A DNA stretch of 11,341 nucleotides from Thainema sp. (GTDB lineage: Bacteria > Cyanobacteriota > Cyanobacteriia > Phormidesmidales > Phormidesmidaceae). The stretch spans positions 1-11,341 of the forward strand of contig JBQLZK010000118.1 of the NCBI GenBank assembly GCA_052168235.1. The letters run 5' to 3'. The notes under the pieces are model-generated. The model did not search any database, was not told the DNA's origin, and worked only from the letters and a program-made list of their open reading frames with translations. Below are positions 1-11,341 of the stretch, in pieces (positions within the stretch are counted from its first letter, which is position 1; every line of letters starts with the position of its first letter). The translations under genes were made by a program, and so were the position numbers.

Positions 1-53
1 GACGGTCTCAAATGAGACACCCTTGTCCCAAAACCTCAATTAATCGAGGTTCC
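1..53 (-). mobile_element. Probable terminal fragment of an insertion sequence inserted into cas1 (family uncertain, possibly IS5-like)
   Basis: On the - strand the Cas1-like reading ends at ...FNNVL and continues GGAACCTCGATTAATTGAGGTTTTGGGAC..., giving a non-Cas1 tail (REPRLIEVLGQGCLI*). The segment starts with GG, as many IS ends do, and holds two short inverted repeats (GTCTCA/TGAGAC 5-18; AACCTC/GAGGTT 32-51). The junction is uncertain by 1-3 bp and no transposase is visible. Confidence 0.55.
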
Positions 54-691
54 CTCAACACATTGTTGAACAGCAGCGTATAACCGAAACTCAGCAGCGA
101 ATTGATCGGATCAGTGGGCGGACGCCGACTTCGGTGCGTCAGCTCGAAATCAGGTTGAGTAATCAGCTGCCCTAACGCCGGAAAATAGCGGGCCGCACTC
201 GCTCCCTCTAATCCACGCAGCACATCTAGATGCTCAGCCAGCGGTTCCAGCCGCTCGACTTTCCGCAAATCTTGATCTAGACCCGCAATGGCGCTGGCGA
301 CCTGCTCACTATTCCGTCGCCGATTGAGCTTCAACAGCAACTGCTTCGAGTTCCACAGTTTACCCGTGACGAGTGATTTCGCCATCTCAGCTTGAAAGGT
401 ATTATCTTCAAAACGCCGGAACTGGGCCATTTCAGCCCTTAAATCATCATGCTCAGCGTTCCAGAGTTGCCCTTTATACTGCCCCGTCTGCGATAAAAAG
501 GCGACTGGAATCTGCTGATAGAGACAGGTCGAAATGGCTGCGGTCGTCAGTTGAATGTTGCCAAACACTAAAACCTGTTCAACATCGCGAATTGGCACCT
601 CGACAATGGCCTGCTCCGGTCGGGCAATGGCAAATCGTCCATGCGCCTTATGCAGCTTGCTTCCTTGGTGAACCAGACAGAGTAATGACAT
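8..691 (-). pseudogene. cas1: CRISPR-associated endonuclease Cas1, C-terminally truncated/interrupted
   Basis: Cas1 motifs: N-terminal L.LVHQGSKLHK..GRF, VPIRDVEQVLVFGNIQLTT, IPVAFLSQTGQYKG, LRGLEGASAARYF (catalytic Glu), R.RRPPTDPINSLLSFGYTLL. Likely start is ATG at 691 (MSLL...) rather than TTG at 718. The G..H motif and the downstream DL.EE.R motif are absent. It is about 227 aa versus about 330 aa for typical Cas1. Confidence 0.9.
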
Positions 692-1123
692 GGCTACAGA
701 TTGGATAGATAAGAACAATCATCTGCTCTTAACCAACCCTCAACCTGGCAACAGCTCACGACAACATTTGCATCTACACCATGTGTTTAATCGCAATGCA
801 GTCAAAATTCACAGTAGATACTACTTTTGTTCGCCAAATAAATTTGTACTGCGTATCCGTGCTTAACAAGCTTGACCTAACAACGTCAACTAATTGAAGT
901 AAATTACCGCACTGCTTAATCTTTATTGTCTTAGCTGTTCATTTTCCTTCAAGTTCATCAATATTACGGATATTCCTGACTAGAATGATCCGGAATACAC
1001 CCAATTCTCTGTGGAACCCAAAAAGAGTTTAGACCCACCCCTCTGCTGCTGATATCGTTGCATCACTCAATCAATAACTGCCGCGACTCAGCACAATGCC
1101 AAGATATAGAGTACTTCCTGGCT
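692..1123. promoter_or_regulatory. Divergent promoter region between cas1 and cas10
   Basis: AT-rich non-coding gap between head-to-head genes. It has a candidate -10 TAGAAT at 981-986 and palindromes at 813-825, 872-889 and 962-997. Exact promoters cannot be determined. Confidence 0.55.
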
Positions 1124-3565
1124 ATGTCCGACTTTCCCGACAACATCAAAATTGCGATCGCGCAATGCCTAACCTGGCAAAGCGATTTGACCAATGATCA
1201 AGTCATTCAAGCCCTCAATGCTGTTGATGATACGCTCCAAAATCCTTTTGCTAAGTTAACAACCCGAGCAGAATTAGAAAAATTTGTCACAGAAAAGACG
1301 GATCCAATTTTGTCAAAAAATAAGATTGGTCTGGTCTACGGTGGTGCCACTAAAATCAAAAACTACGTCTTTGAATCTGCTGACTTACAAGAGATTCGCG
1401 GAGCATCGGCTCTACTTGATCGGATCAACTTAATCGATCTGCCAGCCTTCTTCAAAGCTGAAACTGATGGAAAACGCTTTCCCCAGTGTGAACAGGCTAA
1501 AGGTTACTGTAAGCAGGTGCGGACTCAGTGGCTAGGCCATCAGGACAATTTTCCTAAACTCGTAGATACCCTGACACCAGAGATGGTGATTTATTCAACT
1601 GGGGGCAATATCTTGGCCTTTTGCCCAGAAGAGTTGGTTGACGATCTCGCTGACGCAATCGAAAAACGCTACACAACTGAAACTTTAACCGCTAATGCCT
1701 GTGCCGTTGGTGCCAAGTTCAGCCCTCTAGAAATTTATCTAGGATTGCTGGGTGAATCTTTAGAGAACACGCTTTGGCTCGATACAGTTGAGGCTCATAA
1801 AGACAATCCTGCGGTTCGGGCTTATTTGGGCTTATCGAAGAAGCGAGATAAAAACGGGAATGAACAAGAAGTCTTGCGCCCTAAAGAGGCATTTAAGCAA
1901 CGCAAAGGGTTTAGTGAACTAGTCGGTCAGTTAGCTAATCAGTTCAACCAACGACGCAGCGGCTACGATGCTCTCGATTCACACCGTTCCAGCCGTTGCT
2001 ATCCCCCTATGTTTGAGACGCATCCTTATTTAATGCGGGATGATAGCGACAGGAGATCAGCTGTTTTACAAGTTCCTGCTGACCAGCTAACTAAAACCCC
2101 TAAATTCTCAGAACCATTAGCTAGAAAATATCTTGTTGGGCAAATCTCTAAGCGTGAATACTCAAGCAGCCGATGGTATTTCACTCGTTCTTCTCCTTTT
2201 CGACAACGGATACAAGGACGAAATCGATTATGGAAACCTGGACCGCTGATTAGCTGGGTCAGCAAGTTTGAGCAATTTGTAGATGAAAATGGGTTTGTCA
2301 GCCTCTATGACGACCACCACCATATTTTTTATCCTCGAAGAACACGCCAGCGGCTTGTTCAAGATGTGTATCGACGTGAGGCGCGCACGCTAGCGGAAAT
2401 TGGAGCCGCTGATCCCAATGGATTTGTTGCTTATGTTTATGCGGATGGCAACAACATGGGGCAGTATATCCGCGACAGCATTAAAACTCCTGAACACTAT
2501 CAGCAATTTAGTCAAGACGTTTTTGATGCGACTGAGAAATCCGTTTACTGGGCGATCGCTCACCATGTCCACCCCTATGAATATACTCCCGATGCCAAGT
2601 CTCCGCGAAGGAACAGAAATCCGGTGTGGAGTCATCCCTTTGAGATCATCACGATTGGCGGCGACGATGTGCTGATCATTGTGCCCGCTAATAAAGCCCT
2701 GGAAATCGCTGCATCTATCGGACAAGAGTTTGAGCAACGCTTGTCCGAAGGAGATAAGCCGTATATGGCCCCAAATACTTACGATCCTACTCGGACTCAT
2801 AGAAACTCTCGACAAATTTCTTTTTGCCCAATTCAGCAAAATCGATTGAGTATGTCTAGTGGAGTACTTATTACGTCAGCAGATACGCCTATTTATTACG
2901 CATTTAACTTGGTCTCACAACTTTTAAAGTCAGCAAAAAAGAAGGCCAAGACTCTAAGTAAACGAGAAGACAATCAATATTTGGGTGGCACTGTCGATTT
3001 CCTCACCCTCAAAGCCGTCACGATGATTTCATCCAACATCGAGTCGTTCCGGAATGAAGGATTGACTGTACGCTTCCCAGAGCGGCAGCAGGAATTGAAG
3101 CTGTATGGAGCCCCCTATACCCTGCATGAATTAGATGGGTTGATTAGCACCGTGAGAGCTGTAAAAGCATCGGGTTTTCCGCGATCGCAACTGTACCAAA
3201 TCCGAACTCTGCTAGAGCAAGGCAAACGCACTGCCATCTTGAACTATCGCTATTTCAGAGTCCGACTCAAGCGAGATAAAGATCCGCAGAAAGATCCACA
3301 ACAACTCTTGATCGACTACTTTGAGAATGCTTGGTGCAAGGCTAAAACGAATGATGGCAACTTGGCTCCTTGGATGACTTTGGATGACTCCAAGGATAAC
3401 GCCTCTGTTGAGGTAGCTAAAGAGAAGAAAACGATCTACGAAACTCTGTGGCGAGAACTGGTTGATCTCTATCCCTTCATTGAAGCCCCAGTGACTGAAG
3501 TTCCAAAAGATATAGACGATGCCCAGGAGGGCAAAACGCAGTCGGCTAGCAGTGAGGAGGCGTAA
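1124..3565 (+). CDS. cas10: Type III CRISPR large subunit Cas10 (III-D / Crm2-like), no HD domain
   Basis: Palm1-type segment LVYGGATKIKNYVF...LQEIRGASALLD and IYSTGGNILAF; Palm2 motifs YVYADGNNMG and IITIGGDDVLII (GGDD at 2657-2668); C-terminal helical domain (FPRSQLYQIR). Probable start is ATG 1124 (MSDFPD..., 813 aa); the track start TTG 1058 is less likely. Confidence 0.95.
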   Translation: MSDFPDNIKIAIAQCLTWQSDLTNDQVIQALNAVDDTLQNPFAKLTTRAELEKFVTEKTDPILSKNKIGLVYGGATKIKNYVFESADLQEIRGASALLDRINLIDLPAFFKAETDGKRFPQCEQAKGYCKQVRTQWLGHQDNFPKLVDTLTPEMVIYSTGGNILAFCPEELVDDLADAIEKRYTTETLTANACAVGAKFSPLEIYLGLLGESLENTLWLDTVEAHKDNPAVRAYLGLSKKRDKNGNEQEVLRPKEAFKQRKGFSELVGQLANQFNQRRSGYDALDSHRSSRCYPPMFETHPYLMRDDSDRRSAVLQVPADQLTKTPKFSEPLARKYLVGQISKREYSSSRWYFTRSSPFRQRIQGRNRLWKPGPLISWVSKFEQFVDENGFVSLYDDHHHIFYPRRTRQRLVQDVYRREARTLAEIGAADPNGFVAYVYADGNNMGQYIRDSIKTPEHYQQFSQDVFDATEKSVYWAIAHHVHPYEYTPDAKSPRRNRNPVWSHPFEIITIGGDDVLIIVPANKALEIAASIGQEFEQRLSEGDKPYMAPNTYDPTRTHRNSRQISFCPIQQNRLSMSSGVLITSADTPIYYAFNLVSQLLKSAKKKAKTLSKREDNQYLGGTVDFLTLKAVTMISSNIESFRNEGLTVRFPERQQELKLYGAPYTLHELDGLISTVRAVKASGFPRSQLYQIRTLLEQGKRTAILNYRYFRVRLKRDKDPQKDPQQLLIDYFENAWCKAKTNDGNLAPWMTLDDSKDNASVEVAKEKKTIYETLWRELVDLYPFIEAPVTEVPKDIDDAQEGKTQSASSEEA

Positions 3566-3567
3566 TC

Positions 3568-4386
3568 ATGATTCAACTCAGCGCTCTCAATCAAGCCTCC
3601 GCCCAAACAAGCCCGATCGACCCCATTTCTCTAACAGCAATTGTTGATACGGCTCTCTGTGTCGGGGCTGGTGGGTCATCTGGCTCCCAAGCTGATAAAC
3701 CTATTATCAAAACGGCAGAGGATCGATTAGTTATACCGGCCTCTCAACTCAAAGGTAGACTGCGTCATGAATGCGAAAAGCTGACGCGAGCGTTAGGCTG
3801 GCCTACCTGTGAATCCCCAGTAGCAGAAACCATGTGTCCTCAACGGGTTGGATTTGCGGCCAAGGATGCAGCAGATAATGACCACGAAAATCGCTTTCAT
3901 ACAACTATCTACCAAGTGCCCGGTGACGGACGACATCACTGTTTGATTTGTCAGATATTTGGCAATCCTGCATTACCGGCCAAACTTCAGCTCAGCGATC
4001 TGGTTTGTACCGAGCCACCAGAGAATATTCCTGAAGTCATACGTCCTGGCGTGACGATTAACCGTCGTCGTCGCACTGCCGAGGAGAAAAAGCTGTACTT
4101 CTTAGAAACTTCACCAGCCAATGCCCAGCTTACGTTTACAGGTACGCTAACCCTGGAACCCAATCTCCATCTTGGAGCCAAAGTATTGCTTCTGGCCGGA
4201 CTCAAGCATATCCATGCATTAGGCGGCAGTAAATCAACTGGATTGGGTTGGCTTCGTTGGCAATCGTCTTTCTTGGAGACTCCGGATATTGAGCAAGATG
4301 CCTGGGACTTTTTAAGCCAAGCACCAGCCAAAAATAATGCATCTCAAACCTCTACAGCAGAGGAGAACAAGCATGAAACGGATTGA
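3568..4386 (+). CDS. cas7: Cas7-group RAMP (Csm3-like) with Zn-binding cysteines
   Basis: TALCVGAG...ADKPII (Csm3-type catalytic Asp position), IPASQLKGRLRH, CLICQIFG, RPGVTINRRRRTA, Gly-rich loop LGGSKSTGLG. Starts 2 bp after the cas10 stop, with GAGGAGG upstream. Confidence 0.9.
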   Translation: MIQLSALNQASAQTSPIDPISLTAIVDTALCVGAGGSSGSQADKPIIKTAEDRLVIPASQLKGRLRHECEKLTRALGWPTCESPVAETMCPQRVGFAAKDAADNDHENRFHTTIYQVPGDGRHHCLICQIFGNPALPAKLQLSDLVCTEPPENIPEVIRPGVTINRRRRTAEEKKLYFLETSPANAQLTFTGTLTLEPNLHLGAKVLLLAGLKHIHALGGSKSTGLGWLRWQSSFLETPDIEQDAWDFLSQAPAKNNASQTSTAEENKHETD

Positions 4387-5614
4387 CCTGACCATTACCG
4401 CTCAAGCTCCCCTCGCTATTGGCCAACGTAAACCTGGTGGTTCCGTCAGCGAAGCAATGGACTACATTCCAGGTAGCGTCATTCGAGGTGCGATCGCAGG
4501 CAAATTGTTGCAGCATGGTGAACCAGAATCAGGAGATGATTTTCACAAGCTATTTGTAGATGAAAGGGCTGCCATTTTTCAGAATGCGTATCCTGCGATC
4601 GCAAAGCTGGGCGAAGATCATTACACTCTCAGTCCTGACGAAACTCTGGTTCTACCCGCTACCGCTTTGAGTTCCAAAACAAATAGCGGCTTCAAACCCA
4701 GAAAAGCAGGCGTTTTTGACTCTCTAATTGATAGCTACTGTGCTAGAGAGCAGGGTTTGTTTTATGAACCCAATAGTAAAGAGGGCGATCGCGTTGAGCC
4801 TTTTAACGGGTTCTACAGCAAAATTGACGGTCATTATGTTTCTCATTCTGTAAGTAAACGACTACTAACGCGAGTCGGCATTAATCGCAGACGAGCAACA
4901 GCCCAGGATGAAATCCTATACAGCCTAGAGGTGATGAATGAGTCACAGGGTAAGGATAGGCGACAACCGACTGTCTATAAAAGTTTCATTCTGATTGATG
5001 ATAATGATGTCCTGGCAGAAGAGTTGTGTACGTTTCTTGACCAAAACTGCGATCGCTTCCGTTTGGGCGGTTCGGCTTCTCGTGGTTTAGGTAAAGTCAA
5101 GCTTGACGTGGAGCTAAACGATGTTGCCGATCCTACATCCAAAGTGAAACAGCGGATTAATCAGTTTAATGATTGCTTAGAAAGTCGTTGGGAAAGTTGG
5201 AGCGTTTTCGGCTCTGGCAAACGCTTTCCTGAAGATCACATTTTCTTTTCTGCCAGCTTAGAATCTGAAGCTATTTGGGTTGAGAACTGGCGACGCACGT
5301 TTGTTCTCTCTACAGAGATGCTATGCCAGCTTACTGGTCTTGCAGATAGCAAGGTTAATTTAAAAATGGCTTATAGCAGTTATGGCTACCGCTCTGGCTG
5401 GAATGCGGCTTGGGGGCTAGCTAAGGATGTAGAGCTAGTAACCACAATGGGTAGCGTTTTTCTGTTCAGTATTCCGAAGGCTGAGCAGGAGAGCTGGTTA
5501 AATCAGTTGGCTGAGTTGGAGATGCAAGGGATTGGGGAACGAACGAGCGAAGGCTTTGGACAAATCAAAATTTGCGATGAATTTCATCAGGTAATGCGGG
5601 AGAATCCAGTGTGA
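4373..5614 (+). CDS. csx10: Type III-D RAMP Csx10 (Cas5-group, two RAMP-like halves)
   Basis: APLAIG...DYIPGSVIRGAIA, RVGINRRRATA, first Gly loop LGGSASRGLG, YRSGWNAAWGL, GSVFLF, second Gly loop GIGERTSEGFG. The start ATG 4373 follows AGGAG at 4361-4365 and overlaps the upstream gene end. Confidence 0.88.
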   Translation: MKRIDLTITAQAPLAIGQRKPGGSVSEAMDYIPGSVIRGAIAGKLLQHGEPESGDDFHKLFVDERAAIFQNAYPAIAKLGEDHYTLSPDETLVLPATALSSKTNSGFKPRKAGVFDSLIDSYCAREQGLFYEPNSKEGDRVEPFNGFYSKIDGHYVSHSVSKRLLTRVGINRRRATAQDEILYSLEVMNESQGKDRRQPTVYKSFILIDDNDVLAEELCTFLDQNCDRFRLGGSASRGLGKVKLDVELNDVADPTSKVKQRINQFNDCLESRWESWSVFGSGKRFPEDHIFFSASLESEAIWVENWRRTFVLSTEMLCQLTGLADSKVNLKMAYSSYGYRSGWNAAWGLAKDVELVTTMGSVFLFSIPKAEQESWLNQLAELEMQGIGERTSEGFGQIKICDEFHQVMRENPV

Positions 5615-6045
5615 GTAAAACAATTAGTCCAGAACATGAACTTGCAATTCAGCGGGGCATTCGACAAGCCGAAGATGCACTAGTCATTGCGGTTGAAGAT
5701 GCTTTGAATAACTGCGAATACCCCACGTCTGGCCGCGACAAGCTAGAGGAATCCCAGTTTCGTAATTTAGTCCGAGTTTCTGACAGTACCGAAAGTCCAG
5801 AAGTGGTCAAGAACTTTATCCGCTATCAAGTCGGACGCGAACGTAAATGGGGCAGAGGTGAAAAATCTTTAGCTGAACGCATCATTCAAGATATCGACAG
5901 CAAGCTGAAGAGCGAGGCTCAGAACATTGTTGAAGCTGCCCAGGAACCAGACGAGAAAAAACGGGTATGGATAGAGCTGATTCGCCGCTACTTGGGTTAC
6001 GGTGCGCGCCATCTCCGATATCTAAACTCCAATCGGGAGGGATAA
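5611..6045 (+). CDS. cas11: Cas11 small subunit (Csm2-like)
   Basis: 144 aa, apparently all-alpha. SQFRNLV...NFIRYQVGR...W motif and C-terminal helix LIRRYLGYGARHLRY. Its GTGA start overlaps the csx10 stop, and its position in the operon is typical. Confidence 0.8.
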   Translation: MSKTISPEHELAIQRGIRQAEDALVIAVEDALNNCEYPTSGRDKLEESQFRNLVRVSDSTESPEVVKNFIRYQVGRERKWGRGEKSLAERIIQDIDSKLKSEAQNIVEAAQEPDEKKRVWIELIRRYLGYGARHLRYLNSNREG

Positions 6046-6051
6046 GTCACG

Positions 6052-7008
6052 ATGTTTAATGTTTTTAGAAATCGTTTAGAAATTACAGGTACCCTCACTA
6101 CTGTGACGGCTCTACGGATTAGCCAGGGGCGCTCGCTAGAGCCTATCGGATCTGACCTACCCGTTGTAAAAGATGCGTTAGGGAAGCCCTTGATCCCTGG
6201 GTCTAGCTTCAAAGGAGCAATGCGATCTCGCCTTGAAGCCTTTCTGAGAGGGATTGATGGCAGCCTTGCTGCTAATCCAGCTATTGAAGCGGAATGGTCA
6301 ATTACAAACGATAGATTAAATGGCAAGGAAGGTATTAAGGAATCAGTAGAACAGCAGCTAAAGGAACTGTTTCCTAAAGATAATCAAGCGAGTGAACGAA
6401 CAGGTAAAAGAGATGAGTTACTAACACATGCGATTCTTCAAGAAACTGATTTAGCGTCTCTAGTGTTTGGATCTCCCTGGATCGCTAGTAAGTTCCAAGT
6501 CAGAGATCTCACTGTCGATTCTGATTTTTGGTTTGGTCAATATCAAGAACGGGATGGAGTGTCCATTAATCGCGACACTGAAACTGCAGAAGATGGCCGA
6601 CTTTATGATTTTCAGGTTGTTCCAGGCAATACTCCCTTCAAATTTCATACTGTTGTTGAAAATGCTGAAGATTGGGAACTCGGTTTACTGATGATGGGCC
6701 TCAACCAGTTTGAGAATGAGCAAGTTCCTTTAGGCGGTGGTAAATCACGAGGGTTAGGAGTCGTTAAGCTCAAAATTAACGATGTTTGGTGGGTCAATTG
6801 TCCTTCAGAGCAGCCACAGACTATCATCGATTATTTACAGCGGCTTGTTGTAGGTAATAAAGATAATCACTACAAGCTACCTTTCGAATCAGGAACGACG
6901 TTTGAAAACTTGAAAGAAAGTTGGACGACGGCCTTAGTTAGGTACTTAACCCAAAAAGTGTCCACTAACGGAACAGAAGCACCTGCGGAGGAGGGAAGTC
7001 ATGCATAA
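6052..7008 (+). CDS. cas7: Cas7-group RAMP (Csx7/SSO1426-like, Csm3-related backbone subunit)
   Basis: TALRIS.G...GSDLPVVKD...PLIPGSSFKGAMRS, LVFGSPW.ASK, RDGVSINRDTETA, LYDFQVVP, Gly loop LGGGKSRGLG. GGGAGG is upstream. Confidence 0.88.
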   Translation: MFNVFRNRLEITGTLTTVTALRISQGRSLEPIGSDLPVVKDALGKPLIPGSSFKGAMRSRLEAFLRGIDGSLAANPAIEAEWSITNDRLNGKEGIKESVEQQLKELFPKDNQASERTGKRDELLTHAILQETDLASLVFGSPWIASKFQVRDLTVDSDFWFGQYQERDGVSINRDTETAEDGRLYDFQVVPGNTPFKFHTVVENAEDWELGLLMMGLNQFENEQVPLGGGKSRGLGVVKLKINDVWWVNCPSEQPQTIIDYLQRLVVGNKDNHYKLPFESGTTFENLKESWTTALVRYLTQKVSTNGTEAPAEEGSHA

Positions 7009-8005
7009 ACGACTCGTTAACCACTGCACAATTGACCTTACGCTGATTCCTCAGGGGCCAGTATTAGTCAAATCAGGCAAAGAAGGCGCTGATCCGACTA
7101 AACCTGATATGGAGTTTGTTGAGACGTACCATGCAGGTGGACGCTCGATCTTCTTTCCGGGCAGTTCTCTTAAGGGGGCTTTGCGTGCCCATGCTGAGCG
7201 CATTGTTAGGACCATCGGCAGTGATCAACGTCCCCTGAATTTACTTGATCTAGATCCTCAAACTGATCCGAAGATGCCACTCTGGGCAACGGATCCACTT
7301 GACCGTAAAAGTTATACCTACCTAGAAAAGCAAACAGATACCCAAAAGATTTATCGTTGGTCATCGTTTACCGATCAACTGTTTGGCAGTGTTGCGATCG
7401 CAAGTCGTCTACGCATTGAGGATGCCTACCCCGATCCTGACAAACCCAAACCGCGATTGGAAGAACGCAACGGAGTAGCCATTGATCGAGTCTTTGGTTC
7501 GGTGGCAGTAGGGCCATTTAACTATCAGGTTTGTACGGAAGGAGAATTTCGCACCAAGATCCACTTAAAGAATTTCACTCTTGAACAGCTCGGATTGTTA
7601 GGTTTGGTATTACGAGATCTCGATGATGGTTGGTTTGGCCTGGGATTTGCCAAGTCGCGGGGTATGGGTTTGGTCTCAGTCAAATTCAACGAGGCTAAGG
7701 TTGAGTATCCAGGCTGCATTTTGCCAAATGATCAGATAGTCACGTTGGGCGATAACACTCCTTGGGCAGAGGTTGCTCTCAAAGGCGCAGGCGCTTTTCT
7801 GGCTGATGATGAGCGCAAGAGCTACGGCTTTCCAGGTGAGGATGTTGAAGCATTGCGGAACTATGGAGAAGAGAAAAGTCCACTGCTCGAAAAAATGCAG
7901 TATGGATTAGGTGTTCGGCTCCGTTGGCCAGAGGGTCAGGTGGAGGAGCTATTTGAGGCAGCGGTTAGTGCTTGGTGTCAGCGATTGGGAGGGGTAACTC
8001 CGTGA
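7001..8005 (+). CDS. cas7: Cas7-group RAMP
   Basis: GPVLVKSG...PDMEFV, FPGSSLKGALRAHAERI, QLFGS...ASRLRIEDAYP, RNGVAIDRVFG, Gly loop LGFAKSRGMG. Overlaps the previous gene by 8 bp. Confidence 0.87.
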   Translation: MHKRLVNHCTIDLTLIPQGPVLVKSGKEGADPTKPDMEFVETYHAGGRSIFFPGSSLKGALRAHAERIVRTIGSDQRPLNLLDLDPQTDPKMPLWATDPLDRKSYTYLEKQTDTQKIYRWSSFTDQLFGSVAIASRLRIEDAYPDPDKPKPRLEERNGVAIDRVFGSVAVGPFNYQVCTEGEFRTKIHLKNFTLEQLGLLGLVLRDLDDGWFGLGFAKSRGMGLVSVKFNEAKVEYPGCILPNDQIVTLGDNTPWAEVALKGAGAFLADDERKSYGFPGEDVEALRNYGEEKSPLLEKMQYGLGVRLRWPEGQVEELFEAAVSAWCQRLGGVTP

Positions 8006-8502
8006 CCCAAGCGACATCAAAAGCAAGCCAATCCGAAGCCAACCAAACTGAGCAGCAGGGATTTGTGAGTGTTGAGTGTAGTCCTTTGGAGCAGGCTTCT
8101 TTAGAAGAGTTGATTAAGCGTTGCATTACAGGCGATGTCTGGCACTGTCTCCAATGGCCCCACAAAACAGAATTCCATTCAGGTCAGCCAACTGATTTTT
8201 CTGCCTCAGACGGTCAGGTATTTAACCAGGATCGGGAGCTGCGATGGAAGCGTCGGGGTGATCATTATGAGGTCTTGTTGCTATCTAATTCACCCATTAC
8301 GGATGAAGCATTACGGTCGCTGGATGAATTGCAACATTGGTTAATCCGGGATCTAAATGCCAACTTCTATCCCCCTACGGAAACTCGATTTCCCCGAGGA
8401 GTCACGTATCCAAACGGTCTTGATGTCGGTCAGCGATATTTCATGGATAAGAAAACCGCAATTGTGCAGTTTGTGGCGTTGAGGGCAATGAAACATGGTT
8501 AA
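8002..8502 (+). CDS. csx19: Probable Csx19 (type III-D small accessory subunit)
   Basis: About 166 aa from GTG 8002 (GTGA overlap, GGAGGGG upstream). GQVFNQDRELRWKR resembles the Csx19 R.F....ELRW.R motif, and it ends in .RYF.D.....VQFVAL. It lies directly before the last Cas7, as in III-D loci. Confidence 0.7.
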   Translation: MTQATSKASQSEANQTEQQGFVSVECSPLEQASLEELIKRCITGDVWHCLQWPHKTEFHSGQPTDFSASDGQVFNQDRELRWKRRGDHYEVLLLSNSPITDEALRSLDELQHWLIRDLNANFYPPTETRFPRGVTYPNGLDVGQRYFMDKKTAIVQFVALRAMKHG

Positions 8503-9535
8503 TAATCGACCCAATCGGCCAATCAGGCGATCATCCGAAACGTCTGAAGAAGGCCCAGAAAAGCCCTATGCATTGGTGCCATTTCCTCGACAGCGACCTT
8601 TCTTGAAAGCGCCTATTGGTCATCATCGCTATGCGCCCAACTGCTATCACGGAACGCTGTACCTCACGCTTAAGGTATTGACGGCACTGCACGTTTCCAC
8701 GGGCGTAACAGCATTAGGTAGCGACGTGGGCAGCCGGGTTCCACTGATCAAAACGATGGTGCAGGGCAAGGATAAACAACTGCTGATTCAGGGTAGTTCG
8801 CTGAAAGGATGTGTGCGGGCCATTTACGAAGCAATCACTAACAGTACGCTGGCTGTCATCACTAACCGTTACCGACAAAAGATGCCGCGAGATCGGCTTC
8901 CTTGTCGCAGCAAAGAAAGCCTTGACCCGGCCAGTCAAGTATTTGGAGCTTTAGATTGGCAGGGCTTGGTTTACTTCACGGATGCCATCTGCGAGTCTAC
9001 TCAGTCTGTAACGGGGTTTATGCCATCACTGTACCGTCCTCGGCCTGATGAACGGGATGCTTATTTTAACGGCAAGCAAGCGGCAGGACGAAAGTTCTAC
9101 CGCCATGCGGTGAAAGCGGTGGATGGGGGAAGTCGCGGTACTCCTGTGCAGCAGGCTGGAACGGAATTTACATTTAAGACTGAACTCCATTTCAAAAATC
9201 TGACGGAGGCTCAGTTGGGGACGTTGTTGGTTGCGCTGGGGCAAGATCCTCAATATCCAATGGCGCTCAAATTGGGAGGAGGGAAACCAGTTGGTTTAGG
9301 CACCGTGCAAGTGATGATTCCAAAGCTGAAGGTGACGCAGGATGTACGCGATCGCTATTCTAGCTACGCTCTGCCAGAAGCTGAAACGCTGACTGGGGAA
9401 ACCGTGGCTGAGTTTATGCAACAAGCTGTTCAAGCTGCTAAAACAAACAAGCTGGTCGAACTGCCACAACTGGAGGCCCTGGCTGACATCTTGAAATGGC
9501 CAACGGATTGGACTGCACCGGAGGGGATGTACTGA
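8495..9535 (+). CDS. cas7: Terminal Cas7-group RAMP (Csm5-like position, without large insertion)
   Basis: PYALVP N-terminus, LTALHVSTG, IQGSSLKGCVRAIYEAITNS, QVFG, GLVYFTDA, GRKFYRH, Gly loop LKLGGGKPVGLG. Confidence 0.85.
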   Translation: MVNNRPNRPIRRSSETSEEGPEKPYALVPFPRQRPFLKAPIGHHRYAPNCYHGTLYLTLKVLTALHVSTGVTALGSDVGSRVPLIKTMVQGKDKQLLIQGSSLKGCVRAIYEAITNSTLAVITNRYRQKMPRDRLPCRSKESLDPASQVFGALDWQGLVYFTDAICESTQSVTGFMPSLYRPRPDERDAYFNGKQAAGRKFYRHAVKAVDGGSRGTPVQQAGTEFTFKTELHFKNLTEAQLGTLLVALGQDPQYPMALKLGGGKPVGLGTVQVMIPKLKVTQDVRDRYSSYALPEAETLTGETVAEFMQQAVQAAKTNKLVELPQLEALADILKWPTDWTAPEGMY

Positions 9536-10161
9536 TGCTTTCTACCGACGAACTCACGGATGCTCAATGGCAAGTTGCGGATGCGATCGCACGTCAGCTT
9601 GTTTTGGATGGCACGGATGTGAATGAGCTACGGAAGGCGGCGGCTTATCTGAGGGCTCATCTAGACCGAGAGAATGCGGGGAAAACGTTCTTTAGCTATT
9701 TGAAGACGTTGGTGCGTAATGGTGATCAGATTGGCCACAGCAAGCGAACGACGGGCTATTACGAAAGCCTGAATACTATTTGCAATCAGTATTTGGAGGC
9801 TTATCTGGATGATGCGCCTAGAATGCTGATCATTCTGAGTTGGGCGGCTCGATTGGTGCAGTATTACGACAAGGGTGTACCAACGGGTGAGATTGCACAG
9901 CCGACAATTCAATCGGAGCGTGAGGCAGAAATTCAGGCGGTTGTTGAGGCGAATACGTTTAAGGTTGGGCAGGAGCTGGAGGCAGTTGTTACCGCAATTA
10001 GAGGTAACAAAGTTACGTATGAAATGTTGGGAACGATTAAGTTAACTCAGAAGGAATATAGACAAATTGATAACCTTTCTGAAGGGCAGAAGATAAAAGT
10101 AGAAATTATCCAACTTCGTGAAGACAACAGATCACCTAAGAAAATCAAACTCGTTCAGTAA
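9535..10161 (+). CDS. CRISPR-linked protein: helical (Cas11-like) N-terminal domain plus C-terminal S1/OB-fold
   Basis: ATG at 9535 overlaps the upstream stop (TGATG); 208 aa. The C-terminus FKVGQELEAVVTAIRGNKVTYE...LSEGQKIKVEIIQL fits the S1 pattern. The N-terminal approximately 112 aa look helical. Confidence 0.7.
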   Translation: MLSTDELTDAQWQVADAIARQLVLDGTDVNELRKAAAYLRAHLDRENAGKTFFSYLKTLVRNGDQIGHSKRTTGYYESLNTICNQYLEAYLDDAPRMLIILSWAARLVQYYDKGVPTGEIAQPTIQSEREAEIQAVVEANTFKVGQELEAVVTAIRGNKVTYEMLGTIKLTQKEYRQIDNLSEGQKIKVEIIQLREDNRSPKKIKLVQ

Positions 10162-10202
10162 AACTACGTATCATTCACCATCATACTCCTATTAGGTGAG
10201 AC

Positions 10203-11341
10203 ATGAAACTGAAGCTTGGTAACTTTTTCAATTTAGATAATCTTGATAGTAGTATTGAGGCGGTCGGTGAAACTCGTGAACTGGCTGAGCTATTAAAGGA
10301 TCAAAATATCAGCACCATAGCACCTTGGATAAGTAATGTAGCTCCATTCTTAAAGCCCCTAGCTTCACCCGAAATTCAGCTAGCCAGCGAATTAAGCGAA
10401 GCAATTCTACCTTTTATAAAAATTGCTAGTAGCTTTGTAAAATATATAAGCAAAAGAAAGGAGCCTACAACATTTTCTCAATGCGTCGTTTTAGTTTGCT
10501 TTCAAGCATTTTTAGAGTCTCTTTATAAAAACTCAAAAGGGATAAGCATATCGAGCAAAAGAAGTGTCCCTATTGCCAAAAATATAAAAGACGCTGAAAT
10601 CACGGAAGACGATGCTAAAAATGCATTAAAATTTTTTCCACAATCTAAACTATCAGAGATCTTTAAGGAAACTATAAAAACCCGTCTTTTACAAGCTTCT
10701 CTTGATGAAGAAGTAATAAATCTGCTTTTAGAAAAAGCAACTTGGGGAGCAGATCCATACATTAGCTATCTTTGGAGTGACTTACCAGAAGAAGTTAGGA
10801 AATTTAGTAATATATCAATATCAGAATGGAAAAAGGAGAATAGTCAAGATCTAGAATCAGATATCGAAAAAGTTATTAGTGAAGAAACAAGAAAGGTATT
10901 ACCTGGATTCACCAAACCAGAAATATCATTGGGTCAAATATATACACAGCTAGAAGTTGAAGAAATAGACAGCAATGGTAAGATATCCGCTGGTCAACGT
11001 CCAATAAGTTCCCATTCATGGGTTAATAAAATTCTTCTTGCTGGGGAATTAACAAAACCAATTCTGATACAGGGTGACTCAGGACAAGGTAAATCTTCAT
11101 TTTGCTCAATGTATTTCAGAGAAGTTTACAGAGAGCTGTATCCTGCTTACATTCCTGTTTTAATAAATCTTAGGGAAATTGAAGATGTAAAAGAGACTTT
11201 GACTAAAACTTTTGAAGGATGCCTAGAGTTCCGGTTTCCCTCTCTTTTGCGTAATAGGCAGTGGCTAAGTGATCCGACGAAAAGATACGGCTCTTCTGAC
11301 ATTATAGTGATAAGTTTATCTAATCAGGAAAGCAAGCTAAT
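10203..11341 (+). CDS. NACHT/STAND-like P-loop NTPase, N-terminal part (runs off window; probably IS-interrupted at 11289); not in supplied ORF track
   Basis: Translated by hand, it is open from ATG 10203 (AGGTGAG upstream) to the window end with no stop: MKLKLGNFFNLDNLDSSIEAVGETRELAELLK... It has a pre-NACHT-like ISLGQIYTQLEV segment, Walker A ILIQGDSGQGKSSF (11073-11096), then YPAYIPVLINLREI and WLSDPTKRY. Confidence 0.8.
   Translation, partial: MKLKLGNFFNLDNLDSSIEAVGETRELAELLKDQNISTIAPWISNVAPFLKPLASPEIQLASELSEAILPFIKIASSFVKYISKRKEPTTFSQCVVLVCFQAFLESLYKNSKGISISSKRSVPIAKNIKDAEITEDDAKNALKFFPQSKLSEIFKETIKTRLLQASLDEEVINLLLEKATWGADPYISYLWSDLPEEVRKFSNISISEWKKENSQDLESDIEKVISEETRKVLPGFTKPEISLGQIYTQLEVEEIDSNGKISAGQRPISSHSWVNKILLAGELTKPILIQGDSGQGKSSFCSMYFREVYRELYPAYIPVLINLREIEDVKETLTKTFEGCLEFRFPSLLRNRQWLSDPTKRYGSSDIIVISLSNQESKL
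11289..11341. mobile_element. Probable ISL3-family terminal inverted repeat / IS end
   Basis: Begins GGCTCTTC, the terminal motif I recall for ISL3-family elements such as IS1096 and IS1411. It starts exactly where the NACHT Walker B strand (hhhhDGFDE) is expected. It is preceded by the A-rich 8-mer AAAGATAC, a candidate target duplication. Confidence 0.6.

Follow-up and report, generated by a model that had tools for sequence, protein, structure and literature searches.

We analyzed a stretch of 11,341 nucleotides from the cyanobacterium Thainema sp. (GenBank assembly GCA_052168235.1, contig JBQLZK010000118.1, positions 1 to 11,341; hereafter the window), the plus strand of which carries a complete type III-D1 CRISPR effector operon with csx21 as its last gene. 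Based on Pfam, NCBIfam, and PADLOC hidden Markov models (HMMs), the gene order in the window is Cas10-Cas7-Csx10-Cas11-Cas7-Cas7-Csx19-Cas7-Csx21 (Table 1). Here, we focus on csx21, in which an initial annotation of the window, made from the sequence alone, had seen a possible capping small subunit composed of a second Cas11-like domain and an S1/OB fold.

The open reading frame (ORF) 9535–10161 encodes 208 aa and is coupled to the last cas7 gene by the TGATG overlap already noticed in that annotation, i.e., the cas7 stop codon TGA (9533–9535) and the csx21 start codon ATG (9535–9537) have the single base 9535 in common. A Shine–Dalgarno-like GGAGGGG within the end of cas7, 8 nt before this ATG, is a putative ribosome-binding signal for csx21. 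An alternative upstream ATG gives a longer ORF from 9496; homologs begin at the equivalent of 9535. Three PADLOC Csx21 models match the protein over their full length (PDLC01516, E 8.7e-80, residues 7–207 on positions 2–200 of 201; PDLC01485, E 3.1e-78; PDLC01042, E 7.9e-63), and two 100-position PADLOC “Csx21” models cover residues 14–111 only, the ~100-aa PDLC01083 corresponding to the N-domain alone. Judging from these matches, from the III-D locus, and from the position after the last cas7, the window gene is a typical member of Csx21 and not a new family. Csx21 appears in Table 2 of Shah et al. 2018 (PMC6546367) as cluster 28, with 17 members, CYB_0586 as the example, and the description “Type III-D associated”; the small cluster 173 likewise bears the name Csx21 in that paper, with the function given as “unknown”. 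Since full-text search yielded no more than this name and label, the family is named but uncharacterized in print, in structure as well as in function. The uncharacterized III-D architecture proposed at first is thus uncharacterized indeed, while the family behind it had already been named and associated with III-D. Pfam and NCBIfam returned only sub-threshold matches on Csx21 (S1, E 0.063; OB_RRP5, 0.04; HU; and NusA, 0.0076 over its S1 region), phmmer and family-profile searches of PDB sequences yielded nothing meaningful for Csx21 itself, and the net charge and isoelectric point of its domains were uninformative.

Next, we evaluated the spread of the family and its genomic context. A word-indexed protein search identified 292 Csx21 homologs at E ≤ 1e-3; among the 120 listed, those with a name were all called “hypothetical protein”, and every named source was cyanobacterial. 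An exhaustive search of 50%-identity representatives gave 229 matches at E ≤ 1e-3, of which 128 had an E-value no higher than 1e-10 and 38 one no higher than 1e-30. A scan of GTDB-representative genomes provided 86 relatives, from which 80 loci were kept (77 with titles naming cyanobacteria and 3 titled “uncultured bacterium”), and their ORFs were compared with the window proteins by BLASTP (E ≤ 1e-5). Overall, a homolog of the terminal Cas7 was found upstream of csx21 and on the same strand in 74 of the 80 loci, two of these being cut by a contig end. The two genes overlapped in 22 of these 74 loci and were separated by 0–25 nt in 35, by 26–150 nt in 11, and by >150 nt in 6, so that 57 of the 74 csx21 genes overlap this cas7 or lie within 25 nt of it; the overlap was a single base, as in the window, in 21 of the 22 cases. 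Where the spacing exceeds 150 nt, the two genes are separated by a Uma2/PDC-S03 gene or by an unassigned gene of 422 aa. As for the loci lacking an upstream terminal Cas7, three (L013, L038, and L078) have ≤151 nt of upstream DNA, one (L074) has a Cas7c-like gene 60 nt upstream of csx21, and two orphans are considered below. Most loci with 10 kb of upstream DNA display the full gene order seen in the window. This survey of homolog neighborhoods thus points to Csx21 as a protein dedicated to III-D loci and strongly linked to the terminal Cas7.

The cas7 gene to which csx21 is linked is of a particular type. In the window, the terminal Cas7 aligns with the 568-position TIGR03986 model and the 519–650-position PADLOC Csm3 models only over two disjoint stretches, which confirms the absence of an insertion domain reported in the initial annotation; its 346 aa compare with 795 aa for the Synechocystis Cas7-insertion chain. 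Further matches of this Cas7 are Cas7.4 of Cas7-11 and 8s9t chain E. None of the upstream Cas7s across the 74 loci contains an insertion domain, and their length is 334–387 aa except for two at contig ends, a split ORF (L008), and a 541-aa fusion (L069). In 71 sequences (alignment A4), the C-terminus of the terminal Cas7 (..P-x-x-x-EGMY) was invariant or nearly so at P342, G344, M345, and Y346; the tail could be a docking site for Csx21 or another partner.

Complex prediction with the Cas7 of 8495–9535, one of the checks named with the initial annotation, was applied to the pair of terminal Cas7 and Csx21, using 71-row alignments from the same loci. The pair scored 0.54 (runs at 0.55, 0.54, and 0.53) vs 0.00 for the best of three controls, and the runs agreed in ≥88% of contacts with a partner predicted local distance difference test (pLDDT) of ≥80. 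In calibration, 116 of 157 solved complexes and 2 of 215 mismatched pairs attained this mark, of which only 18 solved complexes but both mismatches did so with a score of 0.60 or under, although these calibration counts hold only roughly since custom alignments were used. The prediction hence lends weak support to a Cas7–Csx21 pairing.

An AlphaFold2 (AF2) model of Csx21, built on a 56-sequence alignment (pLDDT 91.8, predicted template modeling score (pTM) 0.73), folds into two domains joined by a linker (Table 1). In its C-terminal part, five strands (147–156, 159–164, 168–173, 186–194, and 201–206) form an OB barrel with a short helix (~178–180) between strands 3 and 4, at a pLDDT of 94–98. 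When this model was compared to PDB with Foldseek, S1-type OB folds led the 50 matches listed (E-values from 2e-3 to 7e-2, probabilities as high as 1.00), among them a chlororibosome S1-like protein (E 2e-3), MJ1198 (template modeling score relative to the target (TMt) 0.67, root-mean-square deviation (rmsd) 3.2 over 70 columns), YabR, Mycobacterium tuberculosis RpsA, RNase R, Rrp44, the DHX8 S1 domain, aIF2-alpha, and NusA; the same matches listed also include non-S1 chains (ModE, proteasome). A C-domain profile built from the window and the 80 loci only, and free of canonical S1 sequences, was aligned by hhalign with Pfam-defined S1 domains from distant relatives over 54 columns (probability 65.7%, E 5.8e-5), including the S1 register G-x-x-[LV]-x-[AG]-x-V. 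A profile from another alignment (A3) matched S1 proteins at 1.6e-5; this match was not counted because A3 itself contains canonical S1 sequences. Together with the relatives described below, the modeled topology and profile alignment bear out the S1/OB assignment made for the C-terminal part in the initial annotation, and support a divergent S1-like OB fold. Compared to the S1 domain PF00575 of, e.g., ribosomal protein S1, PNPase, RNase R, Tex, and YabR, the Csx21 C-domain has the same five-stranded OB barrel and S1 register, but differs by a sub-threshold score (14 vs 22 bits) and shorter loops. Its conserved residues include Y162, K173, and K176. It is predicted to bind single-stranded RNA.

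The domain composition of relatives adds to this picture. With HMMs of the two halves, 68 of the 150 representatives listed had both domains, 73 had the N-domain only, and 9 had the C-domain only, some of these sequences being fragments. We scanned with Pfam the 47 N-domain representatives of ≥160 aa without a Csx21-type C-domain: 7 carry an S1 domain at their C-terminus (E 1e-5 to 2e-38), and 6 have a cold-shock domain (CSD, PF00313) in the same position (E 1e-10 to 9e-25), while the rest consist of one Cas7 fragment and 33 proteins without a Pfam match. For one of the S1 domains, identity to its counterpart in Tex proteins reaches 61%. Since S1 or CSD replaces the Csx21 C-domain in some of these relatives, what is conserved would be the N-domain plus a generic OB fold binding single-stranded RNA.

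Conversely, the C-domain or the whole protein can be attached to other partners. Two proteins consist of an insertion-bearing Cas7_IIId followed by a Csx21 C-domain: P0264 (795 aa; Cas7_IIId at 1–692, E 5e-176; C-domain at 711–794) and WP_015217581.1 (829 aa; Cas7_IIId at 1–732, E 2e-203; C-domain at 740–828, E 4e-24). The latter comes from a cultured strain, Anabaena cylindrica PCC 7122 (plasmid pANACY.01), and is annotated as “TIGR03986 family CRISPR-associated RAMP protein”; its gene stands behind csx19 and ends a III-Dv-like operon. A 351-aa RAMP gene is followed by a 238-aa Csx21 in Nostoc sp. UHCC 0870. Other fusions include CHAT and TRADD-N followed by a whole Csx21 (P0131 and P0177, ~495 aa), CHAT and DUF1257 followed by the C-domain (P0236, 858 aa), a Phd antitoxin domain followed by the C-domain beside a YoeB toxin gene (L054:11339–11824), and Csx21 behind an N-terminal part that matches PD-Lambda-2_B (P0270); a word-indexed search for longer proteins returned P0270 only, missing the fusions known from the exhaustive search. 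The Phd/YefM::Csx21-C protein is matched by PADLOC Csx21 over residues 90–160 (E 3e-26), and the pair it forms with YoeB lies directly downstream of the locus’s own csx21 (L054:10726–11824), as does a similar pair in a second locus (L057:10978–11890).

Taken together, we tentatively favor a reading of Csx21 as a conserved, non-catalytic, two-domain accessory protein of cyanobacterial III-D1 effector modules, in which a helical dock places an S1-like OB fold that binds single-stranded RNA at the terminal Cas7, i.e., at the crRNA (CRISPR RNA) 3′ end. [quoted passage not shown] Csx21 may thereby perform in trans part of the job done in cis by the insertion domain in types III-Dv, III-D2, and III-E. 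The insertion domain of the III-Dv terminal Cas7 is described as cradling the crRNA 3′ end and exposing a 6-nt seed (PMC11026444), and the insertion (INS) and C-terminal extension (CTE) domains of III-D2 as contacting the distal guide–target duplex (PMC13294483). Given that the III-D1 terminal Cas7 in the window lacks an insertion, an RNA-binding head acting in trans would be a reasonable substitute, and the arrival of an OB domain at the complex in trans, as initially suggested, gains plausibility from the Cas7-insertion::Csx21-C fusions and the weak pass in complex prediction.

The INS and CTE of the terminal Cas7 in III-Dv, III-D2, and III-E are located at the crRNA 3′ end and hold this end or the duplex, which is the role proposed here for Csx21; they are, however, parts of the Cas7 chain itself, and no similarity to Csx21 was found in the PDB profile search or among the 50 Foldseek matches listed. 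Two candidate equivalences were rejected: the 112 unmodeled N-terminal residues of the Synechocystis Cas7-insertion as a Csx21 N-domain, as neither profile search matched chain E, and the CTE of III-D2 and III-E as a fused Csx21, for which neither the PDB profile search nor the 50 Foldseek matches listed gave a match; the end of the gRAMP model is, moreover, aligned with the C-terminus of the terminal Cas7 itself.

Several observations weigh against the role in RNA binding at the terminal Cas7 that we favor. Pfam S1 (PF00575) reached 14.1 bits on Csx21 vs a cut-off of 22, i.e., below threshold (E 0.063), no Foldseek match of the Csx21 model to PDB had an E-value ≤1e-3, and the Csx21 family profile matched no III-D or III-E chain in PDB. 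A full-text literature search returned no experimental work on the family. The Synechocystis III-Dv complex is described as assembling and functioning without any Csx21-like part (PMC11026444). Because insertion-bearing Cas7s can also carry a Csx21 C-domain, a plain substitution of Csx21 for the insertion does not fit, and the fusions of the C-domain to CHAT proteases and a Phd antitoxin mean that this domain could be the docking part or a general-purpose module. In two loci (L017 and L021), csx21 is found without cas genes nearby. Finally, neighboring genes and a weak pass in complex prediction do not prove binding. A more elaborate version, which we consider distinctly improbable, would make the N-domain a plug for the crRNA-3′ cap and a socket for interchangeable OB folds (S1-like, S1, or CSD) that replace the insertion, with recruitment of CHAT/TRADD-N or antitoxin in some lineages amounting to an RNA-guided protease coupling independent of Craspase. 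In the latter, i.e., the III-E Craspase, an RNA-guided type III complex is coupled with the CHAT protease Csx29 (TPR-CHAT), and the CHAT::Csx21 fusions hint at a comparable coupling; the window, unlike Craspase, has no CHAT gene.

One alternative, for the N-terminal half, is that raised in the initial annotation, i.e., a diverged Cas11 paralog, which would occupy the top position of the minor filament formed by the small subunits, next to the terminal Cas7, and carry the OB domain. In favor of this, the N-domain is a compact all-helical bundle within the Cas11 size range of about 110–150 aa (helices 9–25, 29–41, 48–66 as 48–61/63–66, 70–90, and 94–112; pLDDT 89 and pTM 0.83 when modeled alone). 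The three pairs of similar strings noted between Csx21 and the Cas11 of the window are all present and collinear. However, they were not borne out as more than chance: BLASTP of Csx21 against this Cas11 gave none at E ≤ 100, and hhalign of the two family profiles, built from the loci, aligned 14 columns only (P 0.01, probability 4%). The sole stretch aligned was the third pair, LSWAARLVQYYDKG with LGYGARHLRYLNSN, the other two remaining unaligned; it corresponds to a motif on the C-terminal helix of the N-domain (consensus LGWaaRLmrYYk in Csx21 vs LGYGAR.L.Yl in Cas11), and this domain displays W103, R106, and Y110 as invariant residues across homologs. No PADLOC Csm2 model matched Csx21 at E ≤ 0.1, compared to five for the real Cas11 of the window. 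At the structural level, Foldseek of the N-domain model against PDB yielded nothing significant (best E 1.3; 50 matches listed). Type III chains obtained the highest template modeling (TM) scores among these matches, at E 1.6–3.1 and probability 0.16–0.54, including 8s9x_A and 8s9u_A (TM-score relative to the query (TMq) 0.49 and 0.43), both a Cas7-Cas5-Cas11 chain for which the aligned part of chain A is not reported, and 8x5d_D (TMq 0.36). The highest was 6mus_B (141 aa; TMq 0.56, TMt 0.49, rmsd 4.2), whose length and entry suggest Csm2. Unrelated helical bundles reach a TM-score of 0.43 in the same set. A protein atlas search with the N-domain led only to unnamed clusters (best score 0.86) and provided no lead. 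The lack of sequence signal is itself weak evidence, because the Cas11 of the window matches no solved Cas11 by sequence either. Still, the operon already encodes a Cas11, from which Csx21 further differs by its extra OB domain, and the Foldseek E-values all above 1, along with no support from sequence or profile comparisons, leave the Cas11 likeness of the N-terminal half tentative and, in our view, a Cas11 paralog unlikely.

The remaining alternatives concern what the protein does. [quoted passage not shown] The S1 and CSD domains of the relatives would suit this role, crRNA maturation in III-A is reported to involve the terminal Csm5 together with PNPase and further housekeeping nucleases (PMC9762709, PMC5389561, PMC6447361), and the solved III-Dv complex needs, as noted above, no such part; yet the tight translational coupling to the terminal Cas7, the covalent Cas7 fusions found elsewhere, and the weak pass in complex prediction argue for a physical association, and leave a free helper doubtful. 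An adaptor for death-type effectors (CHAT protease, NACHT NTPase, or toxin–antitoxin), to which Csx21 would tether or signal without acting on RNA, would account for the CHAT, TRADD-N, and DUF1257 fusions, for the Phd antitoxin fusion next to YoeB, and for the NNH3-NACHT gene following csx21 in the window and in two loci. These cases are nevertheless rare (3 of the 150 representatives listed, and 2 of the 80 loci for NACHT), and the usual downstream genes encode effectors sensing cyclic oligoadenylate (cOA) that need no tether, making an adaptor quite improbable. Lastly, S1 and CSD proteins often act on mRNA, and Csx21 could be imagined as a post-transcriptional regulator of the cas operon acting outside interference; nothing specific speaks for such a regulator, and the Cas7 fusions argue for action at the complex, so that we deem it very improbable.

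If Csx21 does provide an RNA-binding head in trans that was later carried in cis, this would bear on how complexes without an insertion find their seed or fix the length of their crRNA, and would affect what must be included when reconstituting a III-D1 complex. The small docking and OB module might also be portable enough to hang other domains on type III complexes. Type III-D1 is presented as the start of a fusion series leading through III-Dv and III-D2 to III-E (PMC13294483). Our literature searches turned up no structure of a cyanobacterial III-D1 complex, and neither the fusions nor the reading of a helical dock with a swappable S1 or CSD was found in print by full-text search, which covered main texts rather than supplements or the online tables of Shah et al.

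Table 1 Features of the window and examples of ancillary insertions in other loci.
Feature	Position	Strand	Basis or remark
cas1 ORF, 236 aa	8..718	-	positions 2-206 of 283-position Pfam Cas1 model
Cas10	1058..3565	+	NCBIfam Cas10/Cmr2 E 2.3e-37; Pfam palm2 E 5e-20
Cas7/Csx7 (first)	3568..4386	+	Pfam RAMPs E 1e-20; Csx7 E 1.6e-24
Csx10 (Cas5)	4337..5614	+	NCBIfam TIGR02674 E 3.9e-120
Cas11 (Csm2-type small subunit)	5611..6045	+	PADLOC Csm2 E 6.7e-57
Cas7/Csx7 (second)	6052..7008	+	NCBIfam Csx7 E 1.3e-69
Cas7 (third)	7001..8005	+	Pfam RAMPs E 2.7e-26; Csx7 E 8e-23
Csx19	7972..8502	+	PADLOC Csx19 E 1.4e-35
Terminal Cas7, TIGR03986-type, 346 aa	8495..9535	+	NCBIfam TIGR03986 E 1e-42; PADLOC Csm3/Cas7_IIId
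Shine–Dalgarno-like GGAGGGG (putative)	9520..9526	+	read from sequence; 8 nt before ATG, inside cas7 end
csx21, 208 aa and TAA stop	9535..10161	+	ORF translation; PADLOC Csx21 PDLC01516
Five-helix bundle, residues 1-112	9535..9870	+	AF2 helices, pLDDT 89-92; proposed docking module
Linker and helix 128-139, residues 113-146	9871..9972	+	AF2; pLDDT 72-75 over residues 111-130
S1-like OB-fold domain, residues 147-208	9973..10158	+	AF2 topology, Foldseek, hhalign, S1/CSD in relatives
Mosaic junction inside csx21, ~codon 169	~10030..10050		identity drop vs L001, DNA alignment decay, GC shift
NNH3-NACHT STAND NTPase gene, open at window end	10203..11339	+	Pfam NNH3 E 1e-16
Examples of ancillary insertions in III-D1 operons	L012:4321-5526, L012:6877-7497, L015:3650-4258, L030:9170-9772, L074:6275-7456

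Downstream of csx21, gene content was not conserved among the 80 loci, where neighbors include TIR-SAVED, CARF-HEPN (Csx1/Csm6), CARF7, Gp49/HTH, putative MNT/HEPN, YoeB/Phd, Cas6, Uma2, and a 2-TM (two-transmembrane) protein. With variable genes downstream and a constant Cas7 upstream, conservation of the effector module thus ends with csx21. Directly behind it, the window has an NNH3-NACHT gene, as do two of the 80 loci (L007, 10643–15169; L064, 5870–8941), in which the protein carries pentapeptide repeats. By this comparison, the NNH3-NACHT gene of the window is variable downstream cargo and not a part of the conserved module, and since the protein lacks a CARF or SAVED sensor, it is not an obvious cOA effector.

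Within csx21, identity to the closest locus (L001) is 98% over residues 1–168 and 49% over residues 169–208, the DNA alignment decays at the same place, and GC content drops from ~0.50 to ~0.35 from ~10030, staying low through the NNH3-NACHT gene. L001 holds a TIR-SAVED gene where the window has NNH3-NACHT. This mosaic junction resembles the trace of a recombination in the 3′ end of csx21 by which one cassette was swapped for another.

Among the other genes of the window, the Cas10 coordinates are those of the longest ORF, with an uncertain true start, and its translation contains GGDD. On the minus strand, the cas1 ORF ends in a stop codon that sits 7 nt from the window edge, for which reason cas1 may be truncated or frameshifted. 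An Rfam scan of the window matched zero families, and predicted promoter and terminator sites in 9300–10400 were not more frequent than in shuffled sequence. The III-D1 operons of other loci often hold ancillary insertions, of which the window has none: a CARF-HEPN Csx1 or CARF-RelE gene between cas11 and the second cas7, a PD-DExK gene separating the second cas7 from the third, and Uma2/PDC-S03 between the terminal cas7 and csx21 (examples from L012, L015, L030, and L074 in Table 1). At the two orphan csx21 genes (L017:9986–10618 and L021:1524–2156), a divergent TPMT-like methyltransferase gene lies upstream, with an SMC gene further up in L017. A gene for an FGE-sulfatase-domain protein (L017:11716–13383, minus strand) is located 1 kb from the orphan csx21 of L017, and the N-terminus of its product is 60% identical to residues 1–187 of the CHAT fusion P0236. 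In L069, the 541-aa Cas7-Cas7 fusion (8361–9986) is encoded just before csx21, and separate second and third cas7 genes and csx19 were not detected, so that this operon represents a more compact variant.

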